Assembly: GCA_964398915.1 (NCBI GenBank)
Contig: CAYNOR010000006.1
Coordinates: 14,068 to 78,067, forward strand
Length of the DNA: 64,000 bases
Direction: 5' to 3'
Source: an uncultured Verrucomicrobiota bacterium
GTDB lineage: Bacteria; Verrucomicrobiota; Kiritimatiellia; Kiritimatiellales; Tichowtungiaceae
Shown here: one piece after another, positions 6,288-62,282 of the stretch
Layout: every line of letters begins with the position of its first letter
Numbering within the stretch: position 1 is the first letter of the stretch
Program-made: the position numbers and the translations under genes
Notes under the pieces: generated by a model
What the model saw: only the letters and a program-made list of their open reading frames with translations
What the model was told of the DNA's origin: nothing
Database searches by the model: none

Positions 6288-6443
6288 TATAGTTCCTTTC
6301 GTTCGTGGACTAAGCATATTGGCTGTTTCTGAGCAGGGCTACTTCCTCATAACCTAAAATTTAAATGCCTGAGTGGGAAGCTAGACCTTACCGGCGGGCG
6401 ATAAAAGTGGAAAGAGCAGTTTATTGTATAACCTTAGAATTCG

Positions 6444-6467
6444 GCATATTTATTGAAAAGCTAAGGA
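6444..6467 (+). pseudogene. short remnant of the rsmB 3' end
   Basis: GAAAAGCTAAGGA at 6455-6467 is identical to 2394-2406, which spans the rsmB stop codon. The upstream positions partly match (..AYLLKS* versus ..ARLRKS*). Confidence 0.4.
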
Positions 6468-6493
6468 GTTGGCTTTCCCGTTGACCATCGGGA

Positions 6494-6526
6494 GGGGCAC
6501 GGCTATGCTGTGCCCCTGTTTTTTGT
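6494..6526 (+). terminator. rho-independent terminator with no adjacent plus-strand gene upstream
   Basis: GGGGCAC-ggctatgct-GTGCCCC followed by TGTTTTTTG. It sits about 30 nt after the rsmB-end remnant stop and just upstream of the ppiD-like gene. Confidence 0.6.
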
Positions 6527-6547
6527 TGTAAAACCAAGGGGTCTATT

Positions 6548-8200
6548 ATGGCTATGTTGATTACGCGCTTTCACAAACTGATTCAGTCCAAAGTGCTTTG
6601 GTACATCATTCTCGGGGTAATCGTTGTCTCGTTCGTCGGATTTTTTATGCCGACAAATAATGCGGGAGCCAAGGTTCGTGATGTTCCGCCCGTCGGTGAA
6701 GTGTTCGGCAAAAAGATATCACAGGATGAATACCGTCTTGCTTATCAAAATACCTATCTCTGGTACATCCTCTCTTCAGGCCGGATGATTCCTATGACCG
6801 ATGAGCTGACTGCGGAGCTTCGCAAGGAAGCCTGGCAGCGTGTTGCTATTTTGCGTAAAGCTCAGGCTGACAAGGTTCTGGTGGCTGACAATGAAGTGAT
6901 ACAACAATTGCAGTCTTTGCCTCTTTTCCATGCACAGAACGGGGCTTTTGATAAAAATGTCTACAAGGCCGTTCTGAAGCAGCTTAATCTTACACCGCGT
7001 CAGGCCGAAGAACTTTTCCGTGAACAGATTGCCATCTATAAACTCATGTACCGGCCAGCACAGGCTGCACTGATTTCGCCCTATGAGCTGACGAGGGCCT
7101 ATCATCTTTATACGGACCGCTTCGTGCTCGACTATGTTGTGGTGCCGCGCTCACAAGTTGAAAAAACCGTCACGGTTTCCAAGGAAGCCGCACAGGCTCT
7201 GTTTGCTCAGAATCCGGAAGCGTTTCGTATGCCAGCCAAGGTGCGCGTTTCTTACGTTGAATTTGCGGTCAGCAATTTCATGGCCAAAGCTGAAGTTCCG
7301 GAAGGGGCGGCTTTGCAGGTTTACAATCGGAACATTGAGAACTATCGCGTGGAAAACACGAATGAGAATGCGGCTGTGGAATATAAAGCCTTTGAAAAGG
7401 TAGAAGGCGAAATCACCAAACAGCTTAAGCAGGCAGCTGCCCGTAAACTGGCTGTGGAGAAGGCAACTGAGTTTGTCGTTGAGGTTTCACCTAAAGCCGA
7501 AGGCGGACAGCCTGACTTCCCCGGAGCGGCTGCAAAGGCCGGCCTGAAAATAAAAACCATGCCAGCTTTTAGCTCGAACGATGACCTTAAGGGGATCGAC
7601 AACACGGCACCCTTCCGTCAGGCGGCGTTCAGTCTGGAGAATGACTCTTATACGTCCTTCAGCGATGCCATTATCGGTAAAGATACCGTTTACGTGCTTT
7701 CGCTGAATCAGAAGCTGCCATCCTTCCTCCCTGCATTTGATGCGGTCGAGAAACAAGTGATGGACGCGGCGCGCGAACAGGCCCTTGCCAGAGCGCTGGC
7801 TGAGCATGCTGTTGAAATCGAAACCAAGGTTAAAGCTTCGCTGGCTTCCGGTGCAGGATTTAAAGAGGCGGTCAAGCCGCTCGGATTAAAAGTGCAAACG
7901 ACGTCCGAATTCGACTTGTCAACTGAACTCAAAGACAAATACGCCAGCACACTTACGGCAATTTGTCTTAACGTGCAAAAAGGGGAGCTCTGCAAACCTG
8001 CGCCGGTTGAAGGCGGCGTGCTTTTCGCCTTTGTAACGGAACGTAAAGCGACCGACGCAGTTTCCGGTCTGCCAGCCATTCGGCAGGAACTGGTTGACGG
8101 GCTATCCCGTAACCGCGCCCAGCGTTTGGCTTATTCCTGGCAGACATCACTTCTAAGCGAAGGAAACTTCAAAGAGATACATCGTCAGCCCGCCGAATAA
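6548..8200 (+). CDS. PpiD/SurA-N family periplasmic chaperone, membrane anchored
   Basis: The N-terminus MAMLITRFHKLIQSKVLWYIILGVIVVSFVGFF is typical of PpiD-type proteins. The length and a SurA_N-like region fit; I could not confirm a clear parvulin motif by eye. Confidence 0.65.
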   Translation: MAMLITRFHKLIQSKVLWYIILGVIVVSFVGFFMPTNNAGAKVRDVPPVGEVFGKKISQDEYRLAYQNTYLWYILSSGRMIPMTDELTAELRKEAWQRVAILRKAQADKVLVADNEVIQQLQSLPLFHAQNGAFDKNVYKAVLKQLNLTPRQAEELFREQIAIYKLMYRPAQAALISPYELTRAYHLYTDRFVLDYVVVPRSQVEKTVTVSKEAAQALFAQNPEAFRMPAKVRVSYVEFAVSNFMAKAEVPEGAALQVYNRNIENYRVENTNENAAVEYKAFEKVEGEITKQLKQAAARKLAVEKATEFVVEVSPKAEGGQPDFPGAAAKAGLKIKTMPAFSSNDDLKGIDNTAPFRQAAFSLENDSYTSFSDAIIGKDTVYVLSLNQKLPSFLPAFDAVEKQVMDAAREQALARALAEHAVEIETKVKASLASGAGFKEAVKPLGLKVQTTSEFDLSTELKDKYASTLTAICLNVQKGELCKPAPVEGGVLFAFVTERKATDAVSGLPAIRQELVDGLSRNRAQRLAYSWQTSLLSEGNFKEIHRQPAE

Positions 8201-8266
8201 CACAGTACGAGGCGCGGTGCTTCAGCGTCGATTTATATCAAAAATGCATGATACTCGGTTTGAAGA

Positions 8267-8318
8267 CAGGGCAGGCTGGAAGCCTGCGATACGTACCGCA
8301 GGCTTCCAGCCTGCCTTG
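8267..8318. terminator. long perfect hairpin between convergent genes (bidirectional terminator or REP-like element)
   Basis: GGCAGGCTGGAAGCCTGCG (8270-8288) pairs perfectly with CGCAGGCTTCCAGCCTGCC (8297-8315) around an 8-nt loop, and the stem can be extended by 3 more pairs. Confidence 0.5.
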
Positions 8319-8349
8319 ATAAAATACTGGATATCATCCGCAAATGGTA

Positions 8350-8955
8350 TTAGCGGTCGTATTGAATGATCCATTCGGTTGAGGGAAGTTGCAATTGCAC
8401 CTCGTGAGGAGTGGCAGAAAGTTCCCCCTTTTCTTCGGCAAGCCGGCCGCGGCAGATAATTTTATAAGCACGGCATCCTGCAAGGCCGGTGGCTTGGAGG
8501 AAATTTTCGGTTCGTATCATAATCGAAATAAGTCCTTGAAGCCGTCCGTTCGCGAGGATGGGATAACGTAAAGAGATTAAGCGCGGCTGGAAGAGGGTCC
8601 CGTGGTTTGGTTCGCTGAGTTGCGGGGCGGGTGCCGTGCGCATTAAATCCCAGAAATAATCAAGTTCTTTGACCTTTTTCAGATCATATCCGTTGGCAAG
8701 CGCGTGGATTTTGTAATAACTCTGATCAATTACAAAGCCGGAAGTGATCAGCGTACCGCCGAAAAAGCCATCCACGGAGTCGGCTAGCGGTTTCATGACC
8801 TCGCGCAGTGTATCGTGCGTCGGGTTCTGTGCGGCGACTGTTTCGAGTTTTGCAAAGAGCCCGGTAAAATAGGTTTCCACTGCGAAGCCGATCGGGTCTT
8901 CAGCCTGTACGGCAAGCACAGCGAACAGCGTGATCAGAATGATGAAACGTTTCAT
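8350..8955 (-). CDS. secreted protein of unknown function
   Basis: Signal peptide MKRFIILITLFAVLAVQA. Its start overlaps the stop of the upstream methyltransferase gene. Confidence 0.55.
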   Translation of the reverse strand: MKRFIILITLFAVLAVQAEDPIGFAVETYFTGLFAKLETVAAQNPTHDTLREVMKPLADSVDGFFGGTLITSGFVIDQSYYKIHALANGYDLKKVKELDYFWDLMRTAPAPQLSEPNHGTLFQPRLISLRYPILANGRLQGLISIMIRTENFLQATGLAGCRAYKIICRGRLAEEKGELSATPHEVQLQLPSTEWIIQYDR

Positions 8956-34869: not shown

Positions 34870-34896
34870 ACGTAGATGCGACGCCCTCGTCGCATC
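34870..34896. repeat. solo REP-like unit (GTAG head plus 9-bp hairpin)
   Basis: aCGTAGATGCGACG-CCCT-CGTCGCATC, the same unit as the arms of the intragenic doublets. Confidence 0.7.
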
Positions 34897-40782: not shown

Positions 40783-40821
40783 GTCGAATAGGGCTTATTT
40801 GATCTATTGAAAGAAGTTCGC

Positions 40822-41382
40822 ATGCACGGCAAAGACGATTTAATTAAGGCGCACGGCGGCTACCGTGATCTGAAGTCGTTTCAGATGTCTGAAATCGTGT
40901 TTGATGGGACCGTGAAGTTTTGCGAGCGCTTCGTGGATCGTTTTTCCCGCACAACGGATCAGATGATTCAGGCCGCCCGATCCGGCAGGCAGAACATCGC
41001 CGAAGGATCGCAGGTCTCCGGAACCTCCAAGAAAACTGAACTGAAGCTGGTCAGTGTGGCTCGCGGCAGTTTGGAAGAACTTCTGCTCGACTACGAAGAT
41101 TTTCTGCGCCAGCGCGAGCTGAAGAAATGGGAGAAAGATTCCAAAGAAGCGTTGTTCGTGCGCAAACTTGGCAAGCAGGAGGATAGGTCTTATAGGACTT
41201 ATAAGACCTATCTCGAGACCCGCCCGGCCGAAGTTTGTGCGAACATCCTGATCTGCCTGATTTATCAGGCCAATTATCTGCTCGACCAGCAGCTCAAAGC
41301 GCTTGAGACGGATTTTCTCGAAGAAGGCGGCTTCACTGAACGCCTTTACAACTCCCGTCGCCGCAAGAGGGGAGATGGATGA
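40822..41382 (+). CDS. four-helix-bundle protein (23S-rRNA-IVS / Avd-like fold) with the four-helix-bundle suffix domain
   Basis: SRTTDQMIQAARSGRQNIAEGS and ARGSLEELLLDYEDFLRQR. Confidence 0.7.
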   Translation: MHGKDDLIKAHGGYRDLKSFQMSEIVFDGTVKFCERFVDRFSRTTDQMIQAARSGRQNIAEGSQVSGTSKKTELKLVSVARGSLEELLLDYEDFLRQRELKKWEKDSKEALFVRKLGKQEDRSYRTYKTYLETRPAEVCANILICLIYQANYLLDQQLKALETDFLEEGGFTERLYNSRRRKRGDG

Positions 41383-41606
41383 ATACTCAGGCACAAGCTG
41401 AAGATATTTGGCAGTACGGCACCTACGAAGGTGAGGAGAAGCTTCGTATGCAGCAGGAGCGAAAACTTTCGCTCGCACAAAAGCTGGATTTGCTGGATGA
41501 AATGATCGACTTCGCCACGAGCACCCACGGCACCCAAATGCTGGTTCGTGAGGATTCTCCCGGTTACGGTACCTTTGCCAAAAAAACAAAATCGGATGAT
41601 TCGTGA
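41379..41606 (+). CDS. hypothetical 75-aa protein
   Basis: ATGA overlap with the upstream gene. It contains SLAQKLDLLDEMIDFA. Confidence 0.4.
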   Translation: MNTQAQAEDIWQYGTYEGEEKLRMQQERKLSLAQKLDLLDEMIDFATSTHGTQMLVREDSPGYGTFAKKTKSDDS

Positions 41607-41842
41607 TGAATAAGGACGTACTCAAGATTCTAAAGCAGGCCTCGCCGGAAGATTTCGACGGACATACGGCGTTTGCGAGAATGACACCCGATCAGCGTCT
41701 AACATGGCTTGAAGAAGCCAATGCCGCCTATTTCGAGCTACACGGACGCGCCGTGCCGGAACTTCGCGTAAAATTGACACCGACCTCGACTCGCTCCGCA
41801 AACCGTTCAAGAAAACGCTCTATGGGATATAGATCTTTTTGA
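41603..41842 (+). CDS. hypothetical 79-aa protein; its 3' end reads through the purL remnant in another frame
   Basis: ATGA overlap with the upstream gene. TPDQRLTWLEEANAAY resembles the motif of the preceding ORF. Confidence 0.35.
   Translation: MMNKDVLKILKQASPEDFDGHTAFARMTPDQRLTWLEEANAAYFELHGRAVPELRVKLTPTSTRSANRSRKRSMGYRSF
41767..41832 (+). pseudogene. remnant of a diverged purL 3' end
   Basis: Translates RKIDTDLDSLRKPFKKTLYGI*, compared with TRINTAISDLVKPFKKTLYGI* at 40720-40782. The last 10 codons encode identical residues but 8 of them differ at synonymous sites. Confidence 0.75.
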
Positions 41843-41908
41843 AGGTTATCGGAGAAGTTATTTGTCTGCTATGAAACACGCCGAAAACACAGAACCAAAA
41901 ATTAATAC

Positions 41909-42169
41909 CTAAATCATATCGAGTGCCATTCGCCGTGTCTCTCTGGCATCGGAGTCGCCAGAAGTTGCAAGTTTATCTACGATGTATGCGAGAGCTTCGG
42001 TATAACCGTATTCGCCGAGCTTTTTCAGTGCGGCACGTCTGGTTTCGCGCGCATCAGAATCGCCGCTTGTCGCGTACTTCATAACAATTCGAAGAAGTTC
42101 TGCACATCTGGTGTCTGCTTCGATCCCGCCAAATTCGACTAACGTGATTCTGGGCATGAAACTCTCCAT
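41909..42169 (-). CDS. small HEAT-like repeat protein
   Basis: Internal duplication ATSGDSDARETRR(A/M)AL, present twice. Confidence 0.45.
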   Translation of the reverse strand: MESFMPRITLVEFGGIEADTRCAELLRIVMKYATSGDSDARETRRAALKKLGEYGYTEALAYIVDKLATSGDSDARETRRMALDMI

Positions 42170-42198
42170 TCTTGTTTCAAAACCGGTGCAGATTAGGA

Positions 42199-42822
42199 CT
42201 ATCTTCGCTTGGAATTCCGCATGACTTTTCTGCCTGCCAAGAGCACACCTGCACCTGAAGCCAAAAGTCCAATAGTCATGGGTTCGGGAATTGCCACTGG
42301 CACATTAATTTGGGCGATTTGGGTTGCTCCTGAGTTAGCAAAACCTTGAATTCCAACCTGCTCTTGACCAATTATTCGATCTGCATCAATCAAAGCACGG
42401 AAATAGTGGAGATCATTTCCTCTGATGGGCTCGTTTCCAGGTAGATTAGCCACCCAAGAATAGTTGCCATTATCTTCGCCGGAACTCCACTTTGTAAAAC
42501 TAGGAAGATCAAAATTATTGTCATAATTGTTATTACTGAAACCATACATTCCTCTTTGTGCTAAATCTGCACCAATAGTTACTTTCCATAAGGCATCTTC
42601 CGTATAATCACCTGCTGGAGGGTCTTGGTTTCTTATTCGCCATTCATACATCAGCTGAATTCCTTCCCGGGCCGTATCCATGTCTTGAGAGTCGTAAACC
42701 GTTGTTTGGATGTAATCAAGATTAAGAACTTTGTCCGCCCGCACCTTCATAGGCACCAAAGCGGCGAGCGCTAGCGCAACCAAAACATTTGAGAACATAA
42801 ACGCGCGAATTGTCTTGTTCAT
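42199..42822 (-). CDS. PEP-CTERM sorting-domain secreted protein
   Basis: Signal peptide MNKTIRAFMFSNVLVALALAALVPMKVRA. The C-terminus reads PEPMTIGLLASGAGVLLAGRKVMRNSKRR. Confidence 0.75.
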   Translation of the reverse strand: MNKTIRAFMFSNVLVALALAALVPMKVRADKVLNLDYIQTTVYDSQDMDTAREGIQLMYEWRIRNQDPPAGDYTEDALWKVTIGADLAQRGMYGFSNNNYDNNFDLPSFTKWSSGEDNGNYSWVANLPGNEPIRGNDLHYFRALIDADRIIGQEQVGIQGFANSGATQIAQINVPVAIPEPMTIGLLASGAGVLLAGRKVMRNSKRR

Positions 42823-43005
42823 AAACGCCCCTCTTTTCTGTTTGCGCAGACGGTAATCACATCTTTTCATCCGGTCAAGTTCAGATCGAGTCAGCACGCA
42901 TGTTCGTCAATAATCACTCTGGTATTTAAGAGTTTACATCCGTTATGTCGGCTGTTATAGCGACGTGGTCTATTGAGCCAAACCTTTGTTTGAAAGGGCT
43001 GCTTT

Positions 43006-44031
43006 ATGGCGACAGAACATTCGTACGACTATATCGTTACTCCTTATCCAGAGTATTGGGCGAAGAAGCTACATGTCGCCTATCCTATTTTATGGGGGCT
43101 TTTTTCCGGAGCTTTGTTTTGTCTGCAACTCGGAACGCTTTTACTTGCCGGTGAAAGAGAGCGTCTGATTTGCAGCTCAGTTTGGCCGTATGTCGCACTC
43201 AGCCTGCTTCCTGCAATCCTGGCGATCACCATAGTCCGGTTTTCAAAAATTCTGGAAGATTTCTCTCCATCTCTTATGTCCTTTGTGACTTGGCCAAAAG
43301 AGAAAGCACTCGACTGGTACTCCGGGCAGGTTCGTAAGATTTTCGATACGCGTCGCATGTGCATCGTCGGCCTTTGTTTCATTTGCAGCCTTCTTTATGT
43401 GACGCTTAACAGCCCCGTTCTGCCCTCCGCCACTGCGCCACGAATTGTTTTTCTGATCATCATGCTGGCGATTCAGTTTTTTGGCGGCGGAATGCTTTAT
43501 GTGATGTGGCACATAGCCCGGATGATCCGGGAGCTCGGACAAATTGATGCGATTAAGATTTCAGTGTACCAGCACCCCATGTCCAGTGTGAAAGCGGTGG
43601 GGGTGTTGATGGCTAAAGTGGCATTCACCATCGTGCTGATTTATCTATTTGGCATTTCGTACAGCATGTTCTGCACGCCGACCAAAGCTGTTTTGGCCAC
43701 GAACTTTATATTCGGCCTGATCGTCTTGTTCTTTTTTATTTTTCCGCAGATGGAGATTCACCGATTGATGGTCAAAGTAAAGCATCAGCGCTTGATACAG
43801 TTTTCCGGTCATTTGGAAAACGCCTTGCAACAGGTTGCAGAGAATCCATCAGGGGAAGCTGCCCAGCATGTCAAGGAGCTGTTTGATATCCAGAATTCTC
43901 TCAATGAAATGGGTGAGTGGCCGTTTAACACCAAAATGTTTATGACCATTTTTACTGGGATAGCCGTTCCCCTACTGGCGGTTCTTCTCCAGATCGCCTG
44001 TCAGTGGATAGAAAAGGTGGTTTCGCCTTAA
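43006..44031 (+). CDS. polytopic membrane protein, function unknown
   Basis: Six to seven hydrophobic segments. I recognised no motif. Confidence 0.5.
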   Translation: MATEHSYDYIVTPYPEYWAKKLHVAYPILWGLFSGALFCLQLGTLLLAGERERLICSSVWPYVALSLLPAILAITIVRFSKILEDFSPSLMSFVTWPKEKALDWYSGQVRKIFDTRRMCIVGLCFICSLLYVTLNSPVLPSATAPRIVFLIIMLAIQFFGGGMLYVMWHIARMIRELGQIDAIKISVYQHPMSSVKAVGVLMAKVAFTIVLIYLFGISYSMFCTPTKAVLATNFIFGLIVLFFFIFPQMEIHRLMVKVKHQRLIQFSGHLENALQQVAENPSGEAAQHVKELFDIQNSLNEMGEWPFNTKMFMTIFTGIAVPLLAVLLQIACQWIEKVVSP

Positions 44032-44052
44032 AATCGTGGCGGGGGATATCAC

Positions 44053-44670
44053 ATGGTACGTCGTTGCACACACATCTATCTGATTCGTCACGGCGAAAGC
44101 ATCCACAATGCGGACAGGAATAGATTTTCGGGAGTAACGGATATCCCCCTCTCCGAGAATGGAAAGAGGCAGTGTGCAGAAATGGCAACCTCACCTCTTT
44201 GGAGTGATATCGACAGCATATGGAGCAGTCCTCTCGAACGGGCTATCGACAGTGCCAAGCTTATTTTCCCGGACAGACAGGATTGCATAGAAACAGTTCC
44301 CAGCCTGATTGAATTTGATTACGGCAAATATGAAGGTAAATTGCCTGCCGAGTTGCCTTCGGACGACCCTGTAACTGTTCAGTGGGAATCGGATCCGACT
44401 CATCTCGCTTTTCCCGGCGGCGGTAACATCTCTGAACATGCTGACAGGGTGTGCGACGATTTGTTGAGATTGCTTGACCGTGCCGGCGACAGCAAGATAG
44501 CTGCCGTTTCCCACCGCACTACAATCCGGCTGTTGATCGCCAAAATCATGCATATTCCTCTACGATATTTCCGCGACATTCCTTGCGAGAATTGTAGCGT
44601 TACCGCGCTGACCTATTGCGACCGAAAATTGTCTCTCAAGAATCTGAATCTTAAACTGAGGTGTATATGA
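44053..44670 (+). CDS. histidine phosphatase (phosphoglycerate-mutase-like / CobC-like) family protein
   Basis: IYLIRHGESIHN catalytic RHG motif, and a later SHRTTIR. Confidence 0.75.
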   Translation: MVRRCTHIYLIRHGESIHNADRNRFSGVTDIPLSENGKRQCAEMATSPLWSDIDSIWSSPLERAIDSAKLIFPDRQDCIETVPSLIEFDYGKYEGKLPAELPSDDPVTVQWESDPTHLAFPGGGNISEHADRVCDDLLRLLDRAGDSKIAAVSHRTTIRLLIAKIMHIPLRYFRDIPCENCSVTALTYCDRKLSLKNLNLKLRCI

Positions 44671-45272
44671 GTCTGGCATCTGTTCTTAACTGGGCGGGTT
44701 ATATTTTTGCAGTCATAGGCCTTCTTGCGACGGTTTACAAATCTGTGACCGCTTGGCTAAGTTTAAAGACATTCAATTGGAAAGAATTCGACCGGATTGC
44801 CAAGCGGGTGATTGCAAAAATAGCTGCGGATAAATTTTATCCGGACGTAATCGTGACGATTGGGCGAGGCGGCGCGATTCTCGGAGCCGTTTTGTCGGGA
44901 AATCTTCCCGATGTGGGGCATCCGCTAAAAACGAAAAAGCGAAACATTCCGATTCTTGGAACGGACAGGCTTTACAAATGGGAAGATGGAAATCGTATCG
45001 AAATTCCGAATGAGATGGTGAGCTTTTTTCCACTTAGAGGGAAGAAAGTGTTAATTGTTGCCGCTGATGTTTTGTCTGGCGGCACAATGGAGTTTTTTGC
45101 AGAGCAAATCAGCGTGATTCAGCCCGCCGTGTTAAGGACGGCATGTCTGGTTAAAGGAATCACTTCAACTTTTGTTCCGAATTATTACGGCAAGGAAATT
45201 CCTGCCGATTTCAAGATGCCGTGGATGTACAAGGGATTTGGATACAGTCGGGATTCTCGGAAACCAAACTAA
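44661..45272 (+). CDS. membrane-anchored type I phosphoribosyltransferase-like protein with a divergent PRPP loop
   Basis: N-terminal TM segment, PDVIVTIGRGGAILG, and VLIVAADVLSGGTM in place of the canonical VLIVDDxxDTGxT. It overlaps the upstream gene by 10 nt. Confidence 0.55.
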   Translation: MYMSLASVLNWAGYIFAVIGLLATVYKSVTAWLSLKTFNWKEFDRIAKRVIAKIAADKFYPDVIVTIGRGGAILGAVLSGNLPDVGHPLKTKKRNIPILGTDRLYKWEDGNRIEIPNEMVSFFPLRGKKVLIVAADVLSGGTMEFFAEQISVIQPAVLRTACLVKGITSTFVPNYYGKEIPADFKMPWMYKGFGYSRDSRKPN

Positions 45273-45315: not shown

Positions 45316-47079
45316 ATGCTAATAATTATCCAACACAGTGACGGCTGGCTTCGATTTGAGAAGCCGGTCGAAGTGCTGACGGCGCGCGCATCGGATGAAG
45401 TTTTCCAATGTCTGGAAAAAATTGAAGCCAGCGGTTTGTGGGCCGCCGGATTTATTTCCTACGAAGCCGCCGGCGCGTTTGATTCCGTATTGAAAACGCG
45501 CGCGACGGGTAATCTGCCGCTTCTGCAGTTCGGGCTTTTTAAAAATGTGGAAACCCACCCCGGCCTGCGGCCACCCCTCCATGGGAGGGGATTGTATCAA
45601 CTCGGCGAATGGACGCCGTCGGTGACGCGCGGAGAATATTCCGAAGCAATTGCGAAAATCAAAGAGCACATTGCGGCGGGCGACACGTATCAGGTGAATT
45701 ACACCTTCCGGCTGAATGCCGATTTTTCCGGTTCGCCGTTCGACTTTTTTTGCGATTTGGCCGTCGCCCAGCAGGGCAGTTATGCCGCCTTTATAGAAAC
45801 CAATGAGTTCGCTATCTGTTCGGCTTCGCCGGAACTTTTTTTCGAACTCAAAGACGGCGTGATTACATCGCGTCCGATGAAAGGCACCCTGCCGCGCGCG
45901 TTGACGGCGGAGGCGGATCGCGCCGCCGCTGAAGCACTGAAGAATTCGGCGAAAGATCGTGCGGAAAATATTATGATCGTCGATATGATCCGCAACGATA
46001 TCGGGCGCATTGCTGAGGCGGGAAGTGTCGAAACGCTCAGCCGGTTCGATGTCGAAAAATATCCGACTGTCTGGCAGTTGACTTCGACGGTGCGAGGAAA
46101 TGTAGACGCGACGCCCTCGTCGCGTTTCCCATCTGGAATAAAACGCGACGAGGGCGTCGCGTCTACGTTGAGACCTCTGTTTACGGCGTTATTTCCCTGC
46201 GCATCGATTACCGGCGCGCCGAAGGCGAAGACGATGGAGATTATCCAAGGTTTGGAGAAGTCGCCGCGCGGCGTTTATACCGGAGCGATTGGTTTTATTG
46301 CGCCGGACGGTTCAGCTCAGTTCAATGTTGCGATCCGGACAGCCGTGGTGGATCGGAGTGCTGGAGTGGTGGAGTACGGGATTGGCGGGGGGATTGTTTG
46401 GGACTCTGATCCGGATCAGGAATATCAGGAAGCCATGTCCAAAGCGGCGATCCTGACGAAAAAGATGCCGCAGTTTCAGTTGCTGGAAACGATGCTTTGG
46501 GAGGATGGAGAAATCTTTCTGCTGGAGCGCCACCTGAAACGGCTGGCGGAGTCGGCGGAGTATTTTGACGTCAAAATCGATCTGAATGAAATCCGCGACC
46601 ATCTGCGCCATCTGCGGTTTGAATATCCAACACGAATCCGGCTGTTGTTGAGCCGGGACGGGCAATTTAAGGTGGAAGCGGCATCCTGCTGCTGGACTCA
46701 GCGGCAGGATGCCGCTTCCACACTGGCGCTTGCGAAGCGTCCGGTCGATTCCGGGGATGTTTTCCTTTATCACAAGACGACGAACCGCTCGGTTTATGAA
46801 AAAGCGAAGGCGGACTTTCCGGAGGCCGACGACGTATTGCTGTTTAATGAGCGCGGCGAGGTGACGGAGAGCTGTATGGCCAACATCGTGGTCGAGCTGG
46901 ACGGGCGCAAGGTGACGCCGCCGGTCTCCTGCGGGCTGCTTGCGGGAACGTTCCGCGACGAACTGCTCGCAAAGGGCGAGATTGAGGAGCGGGCCATTAC
47001 ACTGGATGATTTAATGCGTGCCGACTCCGTCTGGTTGATCAATTCGGTGCGGCGATGGCAAGTCGCCAGCCTGCTCTAA
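45316..47079 (+). CDS. pabB: aminodeoxychorismate synthase component I fused to an aminotransferase class IV (ADC lyase-like) domain
   Basis: FPCASITGAPK, RGVYTGAIGF and GGGIVWDSDP, followed by a class IV-like C-terminal half (FLYHKTTNR). Confidence 0.85.
   Translation: MLIIIQHSDGWLRFEKPVEVLTARASDEVFQCLEKIEASGLWAAGFISYEAAGAFDSVLKTRATGNLPLLQFGLFKNVETHPGLRPPLHGRGLYQLGEWTPSVTRGEYSEAIAKIKEHIAAGDTYQVNYTFRLNADFSGSPFDFFCDLAVAQQGSYAAFIETNEFAICSASPELFFELKDGVITSRPMKGTLPRALTAEADRAAAEALKNSAKDRAENIMIVDMIRNDIGRIAEAGSVETLSRFDVEKYPTVWQLTSTVRGNVDATPSSRFPSGIKRDEGVASTLRPLFTALFPCASITGAPKAKTMEIIQGLEKSPRGVYTGAIGFIAPDGSAQFNVAIRTAVVDRSAGVVEYGIGGGIVWDSDPDQEYQEAMSKAAILTKKMPQFQLLETMLWEDGEIFLLERHLKRLAESAEYFDVKIDLNEIRDHLRHLRFEYPTRIRLLLSRDGQFKVEAASCCWTQRQDAASTLALAKRPVDSGDVFLYHKTTNRSVYEKAKADFPEADDVLLFNERGEVTESCMANIVVELDGRKVTPPVSCGLLAGTFRDELLAKGEIEERAITLDDLMRADSVWLINSVRRWQVASLL
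46102..46166. repeat. REPIN-like inverted REP doublet inserted in-frame in pabB
   Basis: GTAGACGCGACGCCCTCGTCGCGTT-spacer-AACGCGACGAGGGCGTCGCGTCTAC, translated as VDATPSSRFPSGIKRDEGVAST. Confidence 0.8.
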
Positions 47080-47178
47080 CCGGTTGTTCCATCAGGATGG
47101 TCGTTGTTAGCGTTGTTTTGACAGTCGTTCGCGCGGCGTTTAGCATGCTGGCATTTCATGCTAAAGGATTGGAGATTT

Positions 47179-47847
47179 ATGAAGGCATTTCAAATCGGGT
47201 TGATGGTTCTTCTGTTCGCAGGGATCGTTTGCGGCCAGCCGCTGGAGATCACTGCTTATGATCCGGTGAGCGGGGAGGTGAAAATCAAAGACGGGTCGGG
47301 GAGTGCCACCCGGCTGTTCGACACATTCAGTGCGGAAGAACAACAGCAAATTACCGAATGGCTGGCGGATAAGGAGTTTAGAAAATTAAAAATAACGATC
47401 CAAAAAGAAAGCAAGAAGGAATATAAAGAAGAATCTTTCTTCACGTCCGGCAGTATTAAGAAGGTGTCATATAGTATAACGGTGAAAAATCCTGCACAGA
47501 TCGAATTCAAGGATCTCGAGCTGGTCTGCCGCATATTTTGTGAAACGAAAGGAGGGAAAGTGGATCGACCATGGGGCGTGGAGGACAAAAAAAAATTCAC
47601 AATTGCACCCGGTGAAACCCAGCGGTTTGAGCAGTCTGTGGGGATTCGTGACCAAAAAACTGAATTTGAATCTTACCGCGACTCCTCATGGAATTCCGCA
47701 GTGGTTTCTCCGGAGGATATAATCATAAAGGATAAGCTTCTGGGTTTGTACTTGTGCATCAGTAAAAAAGGTCGGAATGGGAAGGTCATGAAACTGGAGC
47801 AGGAAGCGGGCCATATCCCCGATGAGAAAAAATGGTCGCAGTATTGA
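47179..47847 (+). CDS. secreted hypothetical protein
   Basis: Signal peptide MKAFQIGLMVLLFAGIVCG, with GGAG 8 nt upstream of the start. Confidence 0.5.
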   Translation: MKAFQIGLMVLLFAGIVCGQPLEITAYDPVSGEVKIKDGSGSATRLFDTFSAEEQQQITEWLADKEFRKLKITIQKESKKEYKEESFFTSGSIKKVSYSITVKNPAQIEFKDLELVCRIFCETKGGKVDRPWGVEDKKKFTIAPGETQRFEQSVGIRDQKTEFESYRDSSWNSAVVSPEDIIIKDKLLGLYLCISKKGRNGKVMKLEQEAGHIPDEKKWSQY

Positions 47848-47880
47848 CCTTTGGTTCAGCCAAAAACAACGACTTCCCGC

Positions 47881-48864
47881 ATGCCGGAAAATGTTTCTGC
47901 TGACCGAAAAAACAGCGGAAAGGCAAGCGCGGAGGGCCTGGTGTTCGCGGAGGGCGGAACTTTTATAATGGGCGGGGGGGATGTATCCGATGACATGCTG
48001 CGGGGTGAAGATGAACTTCCCGCTCATTCCATAACGTTAGATTCGTTTGAGATCGCAAAATATGAAACCACTCATGAAGAAGTGTTCCGGGTTTTAAGCT
48101 GGGCTCTTAAAGGCGGAAAGGTATGGCTGAAAGGGAATACCGGCAAAGGATACGGAGCCATGGTGTATCTGTCTGCCGGGAAAAAGAAACAGCTTCTGCG
48201 CACGTATATAGTCGGGGTTTCGTGTGACGACAATGGACTTGTGTTAAAGCGAGGGTGGGAGAATCACCCCTGCTCTCAAGTCACCTGGTACGGTGCAGCA
48301 GCTTACTGCAATTTCCGTTCCGAGATGGAGGGGCTGGCTCCCTGTTATGACATGGAGAAGGGTTGGGAATGTAATTTTAAGGCAAGCGGGTATCGGCTGC
48401 CGACCGAAGCCGAGTGGGAATATGCCGCGAGAGGCGGGGCGTCCGGAAGGGGAACTATATACAGCGGGTCTGATTCTCTTGAAGATGTCGGGTGGTGTAA
48501 TCAAAAACAGACGACAGTGGATTACCGGACAACGGAGATTAAGATTAGGCAGGATGATGACCGGGAGCAACCCGTTGGAACCAAAGAGCCCAATGAACTG
48601 GGGATCTATGATATGAGCGGCAATGTGTCGGAGTGGTGTAACGATTGGTACGGAGAATACGATGACAAAGCGCAGACAAACCCTGTTGGGGAAAAACGCG
48701 GGAAGAGTCGTGTTGTGCGAGGTGGGAGTTATATTGATTCACCACAGTTTTGCCGAGTTTCGGCCCGGCGGAACGAAGACCCGGACAGGGGCGTTTCAGG
48801 GCTGGGGTTACCTGACGGCGGATTTCGTGTTGTTAAACCGGTTCCTAAAAATTCCGGCGATTAA
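47881..48864 (+). CDS. formylglycine-generating-enzyme (SUMF1/FGE-sulfatase) family protein
   Basis: GYRLPTEAEWEYAARGG, GNVSEWCNDWY and RVVRGGSY. The start is uncertain (TTG at 47851 or ATG at 47881). Confidence 0.8.
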   Translation: MPENVSADRKNSGKASAEGLVFAEGGTFIMGGGDVSDDMLRGEDELPAHSITLDSFEIAKYETTHEEVFRVLSWALKGGKVWLKGNTGKGYGAMVYLSAGKKKQLLRTYIVGVSCDDNGLVLKRGWENHPCSQVTWYGAAAYCNFRSEMEGLAPCYDMEKGWECNFKASGYRLPTEAEWEYAARGGASGRGTIYSGSDSLEDVGWCNQKQTTVDYRTTEIKIRQDDDREQPVGTKEPNELGIYDMSGNVSEWCNDWYGEYDDKAQTNPVGEKRGKSRVVRGGSYIDSPQFCRVSARRNEDPDRGVSGLGLPDGGFRVVKPVPKNSGD

Positions 48865-48890
48865 TTGCAGCCATGAAGGCGGCCCGGGTG

Positions 48891-49074
48891 CAAGGTGACG
48901 CCGCCGGTCTCCTGCGGGTTGCTTGCGGGAACGTTCCGCGACGAACTGCTCGAAAAGGGCGAGATTGAGGAGCGGGCTGTCTCACTTAGTGACCTGAAAC
49001 GGGCAAAAGCTGTCTGGCTGATAAATTCTGTTCGCAAATGGCGGAGGGTTTCTGTTAACTGGACGGCCTTATGA
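48891..49074 (+). pseudogene. remnant of the pabBC 3' end, with its stop overlapping the purQ ATG
   Basis: 85 of 88 nt are identical to 46908-46995, followed by a diverged tail encoding ...AVSLSDLKRAKAVWLINSVRKWRRVSVNWTAL*. Its TGA (49072-49074) overlaps the purQ ATG (49071-49073). Confidence 0.85.
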
Positions 49075-49868
49075 AACCTAAGATTTTAATTATTACGGGC
49101 TATGGAGTGAACTGCGAAGCGGAGTCATCGCGGGCGTGGGAACTGGCGGGCGGGTCACCGGTTAAGGTTCATCTGAATGACCTGCTGGACAGTCCGGTGC
49201 AGATGCGCGATTTCTGCGGGCTGATGTTTATCGGCGGATTCTCCTACGGCGACCACATGACCAGCGGCCATGTTTTCGCTTTGCGGGTGAAGCACCACCT
49301 GCGCGAAGAACTTCAGAAATTCATCGACGACGGAAAAATCATTCTCGGCGTCTGCAACGGGTTTCAGACAATGACCAAGATCGGCCTGCTGCCGGGGCTG
49401 AACGGCGAATATTTTGATCCGAAGGTTTCACTGATGCAGAACGACTGCGGCACCTTCCAGAATTTCTGGGTCAATTTGAAGTTCGAGGCTAACTCGCCGT
49501 GTATCTTCACCAAAGGACTCGACACGATGCCGCTGCCGATCCGCCACGGTGAAGGTAAGATTTTTACCACGGACAAAGCCGTCATCGAACAGATCGAAAA
49601 ACTCGGTTGCGCCGCCGCGCGCTATGCGGATGCTGCCGGCAATCCGACCAAAGATTTTCCGGCCAACCCGAACGGCTCGCTGAATGCCATTGCCGGACTG
49701 TGCGATCCGACCGGACGCATCTTCGGCCTGATGCCGCATCCCGAGGCCTATCTTTTTCCGGAAAATCATCCCAACTGGGACATTCAAAAACTGAACGGCA
49801 CGCTTCCCGCGCACGGGCTCGGGCTGAAGTTTTTTGAAAACGGCGTGAAGTATCTCGCCGCCAGCTAG
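49071..49868 (+). CDS. purQ: phosphoribosylformylglycinamidine synthase glutamine amidotransferase subunit
   Basis: GVCNGFQ, HGEG and MPHPE motifs. Confidence 0.9.
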   Translation: MKPKILIITGYGVNCEAESSRAWELAGGSPVKVHLNDLLDSPVQMRDFCGLMFIGGFSYGDHMTSGHVFALRVKHHLREELQKFIDDGKIILGVCNGFQTMTKIGLLPGLNGEYFDPKVSLMQNDCGTFQNFWVNLKFEANSPCIFTKGLDTMPLPIRHGEGKIFTTDKAVIEQIEKLGCAAARYADAAGNPTKDFPANPNGSLNAIAGLCDPTGRIFGLMPHPEAYLFPENHPNWDIQKLNGTLPAHGLGLKFFENGVKYLAAS

Positions 49869-59249: not shown

Positions 59250-62200
59250 CTATGACTTGAGCAGTTCTTTTGGATCGATGGCGGTGGTGCGGCAGATGTG
59301 GGAATAGTCGTCGTACCCGGCGATGAGCGGTTCGGTGGCGAGGTCGCCGGCACGCAGTTTCCGGACATTGGAAAAGAGTGTTTTGAGGAACGCTTCCGTC
59401 AGCTCCGGATTCATTGAAAGCCGTTTCTTTGTGAAGTGTTTGGTCATTTCGTTCAGGTCGCGTTCCTGCAGGTGATAGACGGCCTGTGTTTTTTCGTTCA
59501 GTTCCGGCGTGTTGTGCGCGCCAAAAAACTTTTGCTGCGCCGCAAAGGTGTAGAGCGGAAGCTGGCAGTCGAGATTGAGCGCGATTTTCTTTTCGAGGTT
59601 GTCCAGCGAGTCCTTGCGCGACTTGCTCTTGTAGTCCACCACCAGCAACCGTTCCAGTTCGCCATTGGAGTCGAAGATCAGATCAATGCGGTCGATTTTA
59701 CCTTTCAGCCGGACTTCTTCATCGCCGCGCTTTAGCGTCACCGGCAAATCGTGTTTGGCGTCGAACTTCAGTTCGAACAGTGCCGGATAACGATTTTCAG
59801 CATGCGCCGTTTCGATATCCATGCGGACAAAGTTTTCGATCATCTGCCGCAGCTTGCGTTTTTCGGTTTCCCATATCGCGGGGTGGCCGAGGTGACGGCT
59901 GGGCCGCCGCTCCGCTTTTTTGAATTCTTCTTCCGCAATGCTGCGTGCCAGCGCCAGCAGTTCGCCGGACTTCGACGGATCAAAAACCGCCAGCGGGATA
60001 GAATCTGCTCCGGACTTTTGGCTGATCTTCCAACGTAGATGCGACGCCCTCGTCGCATTTTCATCCTGTGAGGAACGCGACGAGGGCGTCGCGTCTACGT
60101 TAATTCTTGTCGCGTACCGACCGCTTTGTCTGGCGATGGCGGTATAAACCTGTTCGAGAATGTCGTGAATGACGTTGCCGCGGTCTGCCGGGTCGGTGCC
60201 GTCTTCGTGTGTGCGGTCGGGCCGGATGCTCAGTACCTTTTCGAGGAAGAAAACAAACCGGTTGCGGGCCAGCGATTCCAGTGCCGTTGCGCTGAACTCC
60301 GGATGGTCTTTGAGCCATTTCTGGATCGTAGACGCGACGCCCTCGTCGCGTTCAGATTTTCCAATGTTTGGAAAACGCGACGAGGGCGTCGCGTCTACGT
60401 TAAAAGCCAGCTTCGCCCGTGTCTGCCGGACTTCATCCTCGGCGCGGCAGAGTTCCGGCGGCAGAATCGTGTGAAACGATGCGCCGAGTACCGGTTTTTC
60501 GATTCCGGTCAGGCTGCGCATCCGTTCAAAAAATTCACCCGGCGCGCGCTCTTTGCCGTCGGCACCGGTGCGGGTATAGGAAAGCGTCAGCCGTTCACGC
60601 GCCGCGCTCATGGCGGTGAGAAAAAGAATTTCTTCCTGAATCAGCGCGGCTCCGGTTTCCGAAAGCGCCAGCCGCGGGCAGGGAATTTTCCGTTCGTCCA
60701 GAAATGCCCGTAGCGCTTTGCGCTCGTTCCCGTTCAGCAGAGAATCAACTTTTGGAATCTGAGGGAAAGTACGGTCATCCATTCCGGCAATATAAACCGA
60801 TTCGAAGCGCAGCCCCGCCGTGTCCATCGGATTGACAATCCAGACGCCGCTTTCTGTTCCGGCGTCATCTTTGAGTGTGACGTTATCGAGCAGTTCCTCA
60901 AACAGCGGAATCATTTGCCCGATCGGGAGCGCCGGGATAGCGGGTGTGTTCAGTTCTTCAATTAAAACCAGAACCTCATCAGGCAATTTCAGGCTGTGTT
61001 GCTGAATCAGAACCGTGACTTGTTCTGAGAAACGTAGACGCGACGCCCCCGTCGCGTTTCTTTGCACACGGGCCGCGACGGGGGCGTCGCGTCTACACTC
61101 AAAGAAGCTTTCCAGTTCCTTCGGCAGGCGGCGCAGGCGCGGAGGTTCTTTGTGGCGGATTTCCTGAATCAGTGCCGCGGGGTCTTCAATACCGGGCCAC
61201 TGGATGCCGGGCATTAACAGCAGGTCGCAAAGCCGGTCGCGCGAAAGCGTTTGGGGAAATGCGAGTAAAGCCATCAAGGCTTTAACCGGCGGATGAGCGG
61301 CGGCGGGCGTACCGCGCCGGAAATGGTACGGGATGCTGAAGCGCGCAAAGACGTCGGGGATAATGTCAGTGTACGGGCTCAGGTCGCGCAGGATCAGCGC
61401 GATTTCGTCGGGCGGAGTTCCGGCCTCGATCTCATGGGCGATGCGCCGCGCGGCATCTTCGATTTCGCCGTACGGGTGGGCGGAAACAAAAAACGAAACC
61501 CGTTCCCGCGATTCCGATTCGAGGATATTGCTGTCGTCAGCTTCGATGGCATCGGCGAAATCCTCCAACCACGGTTTCCATTCTTCTTCGGATCCTCGCA
61601 TCAGCTCGCTGCGTACGACGGCGCAGAGCCGGTCTTCAGCCGCTTCGGCGTGGGCACCCGGCAGAACGGAATAGATTTTCACGCGATCCGTCCCTAGCCG
61701 TTTTTTGAGCGCGGCTACGAAACGCTCTTCGAACGGGTTGAACCAGCGGACGGCACGGAAGTGGATTTTTCCAGCCAGTTCGCGGGGCAGTTTGCCGGAT
61801 TCAATCAGACGGAGCAGGGCGGTGTTGACAGCGAAGCGGTCGGCGATGTCCATTTTTGTACACCATGCGCGCCATGCTTTGAGAAGCTGGCCGATACCGT
61901 GCAGTTTATGGTTCGGCTCATGCGCCAGCAGCCATTCAGTAATGCCGGATTCGTTTTCGGCAAAAACGGCGAAGGTTTCAATCGTCTGCCGGAGCAGTCC
62001 AGCTCGCGCGGCAGACGAAAGGCTGGCGAGCGGCTGGCCGGATGCAAAAGAAACGTTTCTAGCGGCTTCTTCGAGAAGCAGGCGGATTTCGGTTGGGCCG
62101 GGCACGCGGCCCTTGAGCAGTCCTGTGCGCCGGGCGGCCCGTTCGCAAAGGATAAGGAGCTTTTTCTGGGTTAAAAGGCGGGATGTATCGACAACCCCGT

Positions 62201-62282
62201 GTTCGTTGACGCAATGGCGTTCATACCGGCGTTTAGCCAGTTCAGTCGGGAAAATCATCAATGCCTCGCCGCTCATCTTCAT
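59250..62282 (-). CDS. AddB/RexB-like PD-(D/E)xK nuclease family protein (inactive-helicase-like N-region plus C-terminal nuclease)
   Basis: VWIVNPMDTAGLRFESVYIAGMDDRTFP, ERLTLSY, DRGNVIHDILEQ and KGKIDRIDLI...LLVVDYKSK. No AddA partner gene lies next to it. Confidence 0.7.
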   Translation of the reverse strand: MKMSGEALMIFPTELAKRRYERHCVNEHGVVDTSRLLTQKKLLILCERAARRTGLLKGRVPGPTEIRLLLEEAARNVSFASGQPLASLSSAARAGLLRQTIETFAVFAENESGITEWLLAHEPNHKLHGIGQLLKAWRAWCTKMDIADRFAVNTALLRLIESGKLPRELAGKIHFRAVRWFNPFEERFVAALKKRLGTDRVKIYSVLPGAHAEAAEDRLCAVVRSELMRGSEEEWKPWLEDFADAIEADDSNILESESRERVSFFVSAHPYGEIEDAARRIAHEIEAGTPPDEIALILRDLSPYTDIIPDVFARFSIPYHFRRGTPAAAHPPVKALMALLAFPQTLSRDRLCDLLLMPGIQWPGIEDPAALIQEIRHKEPPRLRRLPKELESFFECRRDAPVAARVQRNATGASRLRFSEQVTVLIQQHSLKLPDEVLVLIEELNTPAIPALPIGQMIPLFEELLDNVTLKDDAGTESGVWIVNPMDTAGLRFESVYIAGMDDRTFPQIPKVDSLLNGNERKALRAFLDERKIPCPRLALSETGAALIQEEILFLTAMSAARERLTLSYTRTGADGKERAPGEFFERMRSLTGIEKPVLGASFHTILPPELCRAEDEVRQTRAKLAFNVDATPSSRFPNIGKSERDEGVASTIQKWLKDHPEFSATALESLARNRFVFFLEKVLSIRPDRTHEDGTDPADRGNVIHDILEQVYTAIARQSGRYATRINVDATPSSRSSQDENATRASHLRWKISQKSGADSIPLAVFDPSKSGELLALARSIAEEEFKKAERRPSRHLGHPAIWETEKRKLRQMIENFVRMDIETAHAENRYPALFELKFDAKHDLPVTLKRGDEEVRLKGKIDRIDLIFDSNGELERLLVVDYKSKSRKDSLDNLEKKIALNLDCQLPLYTFAAQQKFFGAHNTPELNEKTQAVYHLQERDLNEMTKHFTKKRLSMNPELTEAFLKTLFSNVRKLRAGDLATEPLIAGYDDYSHICRTTAIDPKELLKS
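60033..60100. repeat. REPIN-like doublet inserted in-frame in the AddB-like gene (copy 1)
   Basis: ACGTAGATGCGACGCCCTCGTCGCAT...AACGCGACGAGGGCGTCGCGTCTACGT. On the minus strand it reads INVDATPSSRSSQDENATRASHLR. Confidence 0.8.
60327..60400. repeat. REPIN-like doublet inserted in-frame in the AddB-like gene (copy 2); its spacer carries TTTCCAATGTTTGGAAA
   Basis: CGTAGACGCGACGCCCTCGTCGCGTT-cagaTTTTCCAATGTTTGGAAAA-CGCGACGAGGGCGTCGCGTCTACGT. It reads NVDATPSSRFPNIGKSERDEGVAST. Confidence 0.8.
61033..61097. repeat. REPIN-like doublet inserted in-frame in the AddB-like gene (copy 3, other reading frame, compensated loop change)
   Basis: ACGTAGACGCGACGCCCCCGTCGCG...CGCGACGGGGGCGTCGCGTCTAC. It reads CRRDAPVAARVQRNATGASRLR. 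Confidence 0.8.

Follow-up and report, generated by a model that had tools for sequence, protein, structure and literature searches.

The window analysed here is a stretch of 64,000 nucleotides (nt) from contig CAYNOR010000006.1 of an uncultured Verrucomicrobiota bacterium; all coordinates refer to it, and loci of other genomes and homologous proteins are labelled L and P, respectively. It contains an intact gene of the folate pathway into which a perfect palindromic doublet is set in frame. The initial annotation, made from the sequence alone, had named this gene pabB. The chorismate-utilising domain was indeed found in the open reading frame (ORF) 45316-47079 (Pfam Chorismate_bind, PF00425, 1.3e-79, 267.9 bits), but the presence of an Aminotran_4 domain (4.2e-43) in the same ORF makes the product a PabB-PabC fusion rather than PabB alone. 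The doublet itself had been described correctly in its sequence, coordinates and peptide, though the element was given no name. It consists of two units of a probable repetitive extragenic palindromic (REP) sequence:

45316..47079 (+), host gene, PabB-PabC fusion (aminodeoxychorismate synthase component I plus aminodeoxychorismate lyase), 587 amino acids (aa), intact
46102..46166, probable REP doublet, head-to-head dimer of a GTAG-tagged unit, in frame in the PabB loop
46102..46126 (+), left REP unit GTAGA-CGCGACG-CCCT-CGTCGCG-TT, with a 7-bp stem, a 4-nt loop and a 5' GTAG tag
46127..46141, spacer TCCCATCTGGAATAA, different between genomes (4/15 identical to locus L115)
46142..46166 (-), right REP unit, exact reverse complement of the left unit (0 mismatches)

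The left arm (GTAGACGCGACGCCCTCGTCGCGTT), the 15-nt spacer and the right arm form an inverted doublet of 25+15+25 nt, 65 nt in total, that runs from GTAG to CTAC. With the flanking AAT and GTT the arms were extended by the repeat finder to 29 nt at 97% complementarity (46099-46127 and 46141-46169). Each arm can form a hairpin of its own (CGCGACG-CCCT-CGTCGCG), and the two inverted units together fold into one long hairpin, as is characteristic of REP doublets forming hairpins (REPINs). The RNA fold of a 77-nt stretch was predicted at -58.7 kcal/mol (z = -11.1) and its DNA fold at -39.4 kcal/mol (z = -11.7). No Rfam family reached its threshold for the hairpin; the sub-threshold hits, to a plant miRNA precursor (34.8 bits against a gathering cut-off of 70) and to asX2 (E = 0.5), were dismissed as generic hairpin matches.

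The doublet encodes VDATPSSRFPSGIKRDEGVAST (peptide context ...TSTVRG NVDATPSSRFPSGIKRDEGVASTLRP LFTALFPCASITGAPK) and lies between the TSTVRG strand and the FPCASITGAPK helix. All columns that are invariant across 110 homologues were retained, including SRPMKGT and FPC.S.TGAPK. In an alignment with Escherichia coli PabB (1K0E) the insert takes the place of the loop QLPEQLHAS (residues 347-355), which joins the strand to the helix leading into FPGGSITGAPK. Residue K274 of the E. coli enzyme, which we take to be the nucleophilic, catalytic lysine, aligns with the lysine of SRPMKGT, about 70 residues upstream of FPCASITGAPK. The latter had initially been labelled catalytic; judged by this alignment, the label is slightly off, and FPCASITGAPK is a conserved active-site motif and not the nucleophile. 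An AlphaFold2 model built from 110 sequences (mean pLDDT 77.8; an earlier run with 25 sequences was poor near the site, with pLDDT <50 over residues 186-304) placed a strand at 252-263 and a helix at 285-292, and residues 266-279 of the insert were modelled as coil with pLDDT <50. The model fits a disordered surface excursion, and the enzyme most likely stays active, given its conserved residues.

Contents of the PabB loop among homologues

The loop was defined as the residues between the conserved G of TSTV.G and FPCASITGAPK. It is 31 aa long in the window and 13 aa in every distant homologue with a readable loop. The loop of the E. coli enzyme has 15 residues, and other solved PabB structures also have a short one, so that the comparison with unrelated taxa proposed in the initial annotation agreed with an insertion. 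The net gain over the empty loop is thus 18 aa; the 26 residues given at first were an overestimate. Among the 120 closest homologues, all PabB-PabC proteins, the 13-aa empty loop was found in 17, including that of Tichowtungia aerotolerans, and the loop was occupied in the other 103. Some homologues with an empty loop share 82-85% identity with relatives whose loop is occupied. The inserts seen in the loop fall into at least 12 recognisable families, apart from several unique ones:

window type (A), 7 proteins
stem variant with compensatory changes, GTAGACGCGGTGTCCTCACCGCG, 13 proteins
GTGG type, 9 proteins
another GTAG element, GTAGGGACGCC...TCCCTAC
other palindromes
short non-palindromic repeats, with the peptides KPRMNANERE, QRHKGTK, RNTQNTRK, QNKECRISN and HEGSKGTK...LCLCGE

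Locus L197 (protein P0002), which has the most similar flanks of the relatives compared at the DNA level (84-86%), has a palindromic doublet of another kind at the junction that is occupied in the window. It is 50 nt long (GTGGATGCGGCTTCCAGCCGC-AGAGCTCA-GCGGCAGGATGCCGCTTCCAC) and is a GTGG-tagged REP. Insert type C (AASSR..QRQDAAST) had been considered as an inner-deletion derivative of the doublet; this was ruled out, since the DNA of L197 shows a separate GTGG-tagged REP doublet. The empty 13-aa loops and the different doublet at the L197 junction bear out the initial proposal of a mobile palindrome inserted in frame. Nested inserts were seen in the loops of P0035, P0069/L127 and P0096, and about ten further positions of the PabB-PabC protein have repeat-like inserts in some lineages.

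A second palindrome, which the initial annotation had overlooked, is present in the PabC half of the host gene itself:

46672..46721, second in-frame palindrome, GTGGAAGCGGCATCCTGCTGCTG/CAGCGGCAGGATGCCGCTTCCAC, GTGG-tagged REP-like hairpin, encoding VEAASCCWTQRQDAAST

It is a perfect GTGG-type hairpin with 23-nt arms (DNA fold z = -8.6), and its family is the one that fills the PabB loop in L197. Homologues vary at this site, where single REP half-units (KRDEGVAST, KRGEDTAST) are frequent and the length is then almost native.

The insert type is shared by proteins that are at least 90% identical; below that level it is almost uncorrelated with overall similarity, in part because of recombination. 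Recombination has made the gene a mosaic: over aa 181-540, P0361 and the window protein are 97% identical, but identity drops to 76% at the N-terminal and 57% at the C-terminal end, and P0004 and P0002 showed similar block patterns. A neighbour-joining tree of the 120 proteins was star-like, with 79 Fitch changes of insert type against 90 for shuffled labels. Since the genes are mosaics, the Fitch count of insertions is unreliable, and only one event or more per family is claimed.

We considered whether the insert could be an artefact of assembly or binning, or part of a decaying pseudogene. The contig is of metagenome type, and a relic of the pabC 3' end was found 1.8 kb downstream. The window's insert is, however, also present in independent assemblies, with an identical spacer peptide in P0004 and in P0361, which is encoded on a separate contig, and the repeat unit occurs in cultured isolates (see below). 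Nothing interrupts the ORF, its Pfam scores are strong and every invariant residue is in place. No second pabB was found in the window when this was checked as the initial annotation had advised; the relic (48886-49056, +) has just 57 aa. An artefact or pseudogene is hardly credible on this evidence. The relic is 77% identical to PabB-PabC residues 530-586 (E = 1.7e-22) and lies just upstream of a purQ-like gene (49071-49868), about 1.8 kb downstream of pabBC. In relatives, purL, pabBC and purQ are adjacent. The window has extra genes at 40807-45272 and 47158-48864, among them genes for a 23S-IVS-like protein, a histidine phosphatase, a phosphoribosyltransferase and an FGE-sulfatase; together with the relic, these suggest insertions that duplicated the gene end.

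Two further loops of native length were also observed. At L165 (~6784-6822), in a distant homologue, the DNA of the native 13-aa loop (ACC GAC GCG AGC GTC GCT) is a small GC palindrome resembling a REP stem, and at L130 (~1016-1054) a decayed single REP unit (AAAAGCGACGAGGGCATCGCTTCTACG) stands at native loop length. They hint, but only hint, that the loop site may mimic a REP.

The repeat family and its candidate transposase

With up to 3 mismatches allowed, the window contains nine copies of the arm; 100 shuffles gave an expectation of 0.00. These are a singlet at 34872, the pabB doublet and three further doublets, all in frame, in one 1010-aa ORF of the PD-(D/E)XK type (AddB-like; 59250-62282, minus strand). 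Four of the five REP sites in the window are thus intragenic:

60035..60098, REP doublet 1 of the AddB-like gene, in frame, absent from the orthologue at L007; site empty in 58 of 107 homologues
60328..60398, in-frame REP doublet 2 of the AddB-like gene, read in the peptide frame of the pabB copy
61034..61096, REP doublet 3 of the AddB-like gene, reading RRDAPVA... in the other open frame, missing in L007 and most homologues
34872..34896 (+), single REP unit GTAGATGCGACGCCCTCGTCGCATC with 3 mismatches, outside any long ORF

The AddB-like orthologue at L007 is about 80% identical. It has doublet 2 at the matching site, with identical arms and a different spacer, and lacks doublets 1 and 3. At each of the three sites several insert families were present in some homologues and nothing in others. 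The search for empty sites recommended in the initial annotation was therefore successful at both genes, with presence, absence and replacement at orthologous positions, and its suggestion that intragenic insertion extends beyond one gene held. It was also right that pabBC (+) and the AddB-like gene (-) lie on opposite strands, and that a peptide is shared because the doublet reads alike from either strand. That this peptide is nearly the same in the two genes applies fully to one AddB-like copy (NVDATPSSRFPNIGKSERDEGVAST); a second shares the frame of the left arm only, and the third is read in another frame as CRRDAPVAARVQRNATGASRLR.

Of the copies in the window, only the unit at 34872-34896 is clearly extragenic. 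Between the convergent ORFs 6548-8200 (+) and 8350-8955 (-), at 8248-8337, lies an imperfect inverted repeat of 45 nt with 76% complementarity and a GCAGGCTGGAAGCCTGC core, perhaps a bidirectional terminator or a further palindromic repeat.

When 181 units, taken from the window and from other genomes, were aligned, the consensus was AAC-GTAGACGCGACGCCCTCGTCGCG-TT. The core and the GTAG tag were conserved at 98-100% (G, T, A and G each at 98-99%) and the flanking AAC at 63-77%. The unit, about 28 nt with a GC-rich 7-bp stem (CGCGACG/CGTCGCG) and a 4-nt loop, has the form of a short imperfect palindrome. We assign it with good confidence to the GTAG-tagged REPs, arranged in pabB as a head-to-head doublet and belonging to a multicopy family of Kiritimatiellales and other bacteria of the Planctomycetes-Verrucomicrobia-Chlamydiae (PVC) superphylum. 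The window itself was placed in the Kiritimatiellales by the homologues of both host proteins. A scan for an exact 23-mer of the unit, with one genome per species, found it at no fewer than 114 loci. Among the matches listed, the majority were in metagenome-assembled genomes (MAGs) of Kiritimatiellales, Pontiellaceae or Pontiella (about 34 loci from the single MAG QKFE01), two were cultured Pontiellaceae isolates, scattered ones were in MAGs labelled Verrucomicrobiota, Lentisphaerae, Victivallales and Planctomycetaceae, and one MAG each was labelled Ignavibacteria and Nitrospirota. Loci with the 23-mer outside Kiritimatiellales (L001, L014, L029, L050, L052, L060, L069, L070, L072, L097 and L103) included MAGs labelled Udaeobacter and Limisphaerales, and there the 23-mer was often paired with a GCGGCG-stem variant in hetero-doublets. 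This scatter reflects either an old PVC-wide family, or horizontal spread, or mis-binned contigs. The loci examined contained 64 doublets and 73 apparent singlets. In the 55 type-A doublets the spacers were almost all different (largest cluster, n = 4); a variant designated B does have a common spacer at the pabB site.

The extragenic predominance of REPs was not found in this family, in which one third to one half of the copies are intragenic. Among 115 units in other genomes the intragenic share was 57%, 37% and 32% when at least 40, 80 and 120 open codons, respectively, were required on each side; random positions gave 78% at 40 codons. A stop codon (TAG) is present in just one of the six frames of the unit. 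Intragenic units were read in the frame VDATPSSR 32 times and in the other open forward frame (RRDALVA) 3 times. The preference for one hydrophilic frame, together with the occupied loop of 103 homologues, could be taken to mean that the extra loop is an adaptive feature of the protein, such as a contact surface or regulatory loop, and that the palindrome is incidental. Yet the peptide recurs in an unrelated nuclease and many other ORFs, unrelated contents are swapped among close relatives, the insert is modelled as disordered, and purging of the Arg-rich or hydrophobic frames explains the bias equally well. We consider an adaptive origin very unlikely.

REP families are associated with transposases of the HUH/Y1 family, the RAYTs (REP-associated tyrosine transposases). 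A scan of all the loci and of the six frames of the window for the HUH/Y1 motif revealed such a protein at L028, with a like arrangement at L038 and L008. It scored 40.9 bits with Pfam Y1_Tnp (PF01797; cut-off 23) and at best 68 bits with the NCBIfam model REP_Tyr_transpos, below the cut-off of 80, probably owing to the split of its N-terminal part by a REP unit. Its homologues, of about 200-250 aa, were named RayT by the Joint Genome Institute. At all three loci the RAYT gene is bounded by the REP unit of the window and contains one, which, as judged from sequence, is the REPtron arrangement expected of a cognate RAYT.

All three RAYTs are set in frame into priA and separate its 3'-DNA-binding domain from the helicase core. 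The fusion is a single ORF at L038 (2969-6496, -) and L008 (2696-5599, +), with the domain order PriA_3primeBD, Y1_Tnp, DEAD, Zn_ribbon_PriA, Helicase_C, PriA_C; at L028 (~5798-8000, +) the frame is broken within a decayed G/C-rich doublet. A protein database search for PriA-RAYT fusions returned only free-standing RayT-like proteins (best identity 59%), so the three priA cases come from GTDB contigs alone. Literature searches on RAYT with priA and on palindromic repeats of Kiritimatiellota gave nothing relevant. Some of the RayT-like proteins P0150, P0183, P0222, P0151 and P0184 have type I restriction-enzyme domains (PF01420, PF08463) or bear the name hsdR; in other lineages, too, in-frame read-through may join RAYT genes to their neighbours.

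Conservation and probable origin of the insert

The doublets at the pabB site in L115, L116, L120, L126, L128 and the window are all exactly 65 nt long and stand at the same codon. Between the window and L115 the flanks are 74% identical, while the arms match at 50 of 50 positions and the spacer at 4 of 15. Four B-variant loci show 71-84% identity in the flanks, 44-48/50 in the arms and 12-14/15 in the spacer. Such excess conservation fits two histories: the element has repeatedly and recently entered one precise target, or the sequence of an old insert has been kept or refreshed.

It could be asked whether the hairpin is selected at the nucleic-acid level, as a structure in the mRNA (ribosome pause, transcript shield) or as DNA bound by gyrase, integration host factor or DNA polymerase I. 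Binding of these proteins is a proposal made for classical REPs. Such a role would agree with the very stable hairpin, with the conservation of the arms and of the entire B-type element far above that of the flanking coding DNA, and with the position at a domain-internal boundary just before the active-site helix. On the other hand, close relatives have unrelated sequences in the same place, some of them non-palindromic (KPRMNANERE, QRHKGTK), or nothing; the unit is scattered over unrelated genes and intergenic DNA; and the hairpin matched no Rfam family at threshold. Selection of this kind is unlikely.

The explanation that we regard as probable is that a doublet of a RAYT-associated REP family landed in, or was swapped into, a tolerant PabB loop just before the FPCASITGAPK helix. 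The RAYT of the HUH/Y1 family would be the partner enzyme of the repeat and may have moved this particular copy. Because the unit is free of stops in five of its six frames and the insert keeps the frame, it would be translated, and the loop would grow from 13 to 31 aa. The peptide, dictated by the DNA palindrome, would have no function of its own, and the insert would be selectively near-neutral. The loop, by tolerating insertions, would serve as a recurrent landing or exchange site for REPs and other short repeat families, and homologous recombination between lineages would spread the resulting alleles.

Several observations weigh against this explanation. The net gain of 18 aa (54 nt) is smaller than the 65-nt element, so native codons must have been lost or overwritten. 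The target-site duplication sought on the advice of the initial annotation could not be defined in the alignments, and neither a consistent duplication nor a clean junction was seen at the L007 AddB-like sites 1 and 3 or in the empty pabB loops; the AAC before GTAG, which was also found at one empty site, may belong to the target or to the element. No RAYT motif was detected in the six frames of the 64-kb window. The arms are kept far better than the flanks, which is not the behaviour of a simple neutral passenger. The spacers of type A, almost all of them different, do not fit a doublet copied as one unit: arms and spacer do not appear to move together as they do in classical REPINs.

A rival history is that of one ancient insertion early in the Kiritimatiellales, the resident being overwritten later by gene conversion from copies elsewhere in the genome or by RAYT-mediated strand exchange at the GTAG ends. 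The alleles would then have been shuffled by recombination, and the apparent hot spot would involve no target preference. The uniform length of the six A- and B-type doublets, each with a 15-nt spacer at one codon, would be expected from such a history, as would the spacer-encoded stretch of 6 aa in every A-type protein, the identical arms and randomised spacer of the window and L115, the same junctions respected by the replacement in L197, the nested intermediates (P0035, P0069/L127, P0096) and the mosaic structure of the genes. Against it, 13-aa empty loops turn up here and there among relatives that are 82-85% identical and occupied, and non-REP families without GTAG ends also occupy the site. 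Conversion of the arms only would leave the conserved B-type spacers unexplained, and the AddB-like sites show clear presence and absence at about 80% identity. A single ancient insertion is possible but doubtful, and the REP doublet in a tolerant loop is retained as the best explanation.

Related systems and significance

GTAG-tagged REPs are short GC-rich stem-loops with a terminal GTAG that commonly form inverted dimers (Di Nocera, De Gregorio and Rocco, 2013, BMC Genomics 14:522; PMC3733652). In-frame dimers were shown to add 20-30 aa to proteins; they are most numerous in the verrucomicrobium Opitutus terrae, often in replication, recombination or repair genes and sometimes with two dimers per gene, RAYT genes are flanked by REPs, and different REPs occur near one recB site in two Xanthomonas species (PMC3733652). 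The elements of O. terrae resemble those of the window in being head-to-head dimers with variable spacers in a member of the PVC superphylum and in having repair genes as hosts (recB-like here). Their unit has another sequence, however, their peptides (VGPALAAG, GTGVPPV) are unlike those of the window, and VDATP and GVAST are absent from the supplementary tables of that study (PMC3733652). Neither Kiritimatiellota nor pabB is among its listed hosts, and here one third to one half of the copies are intragenic and one loop has received a dozen families across an order. Translated REPs inside genes have thus been known since 2013; the unit, the phylum and the host gene are new, as is the second in-frame palindrome of that gene. 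The scale of site re-use, the intragenic fraction with its frame bias, the excess conservation of the element and the RAYT in priA go beyond the searchable literature.

REPIN-RAYT systems (Bertels and Rainey, 2011, PMC3116915; Nunvar et al., 2010, PMC2817692) share with the present family the inverted pair of REPs, a RAYT of the Y1/HUH type and the commonness of doublets. In Pseudomonas fluorescens SBW25 only 14 of 1,067 REP 16-mers overlap genes (PMC3116915), and Pseudomonas REPINs are almost wholly extragenic, in contrast to the many intragenic copies here. The doublet is the replicative unit of REPINs, whereas the type-A spacers nearly all differ from copy to copy, and REPIN-associated RAYTs are free-standing and not, as here, in frame inside priA.

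Rickettsia palindromic elements (RPEs), an older analogue, are said to have been found by Ogata and colleagues in 2000 to be inserted in frame into protein genes. Like the doublets described here, they occur in frame in many unrelated protein genes, to which they add a peptide while the host apparently stays functional. RPE-1, at about 100-150 bp, is longer than the REP doublet, and the hosts of RPEs are obligate intracellular alphaproteobacteria; we know of no RAYT partner for RPEs. The short RPE-4 and RPE-6 are CGTC-tagged (PMC3733652). Neither the RPE consensus nor this tag is matched by the present unit, which is GTAG-tagged and unrelated in sequence. The miniature inverted-repeat transposable elements of Coxiella burnetii, which insert into ORFs or fuse with them, are also reported to be small non-autonomous palindromic repeats that provide coding sequence to host genes (PMC5896051), but they belong to another class of element, with terminal inverted repeats.

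A bolder reading is that the GTAG-REP/RAYT system of Kiritimatiellales and other PVC bacteria is specialised for life inside genes. It is prompted by the stop-free frames, the bias to a hydrophilic frame, the codon-exact exchange in loops, the sequence-perfect elements and the RAYT in priA, and we hold it to be rather unlikely. If it were true, the system would act throughout the lineage, driven by an enzyme, to vary the loops of essential proteins, and PriA-RAYT would be a new type of fusion between host protein and transposase; PriA is the replication-restart helicase, and the fusion could couple REP mobility to stalled forks.

Inserts of this kind inflate and fragment protein families and may mislead annotation, alignment and structure prediction in PVC genomes. 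In the Kiritimatiellales a single loop of a folate-pathway enzyme has accommodated at least 12 short repeats across the order, and three loops of a repair nuclease behave likewise. The order therefore offers a natural system in which to study how REPs and RAYTs choose and re-use their targets, whether excision may be seamless, and how much insertion the surface loops of proteins can bear.

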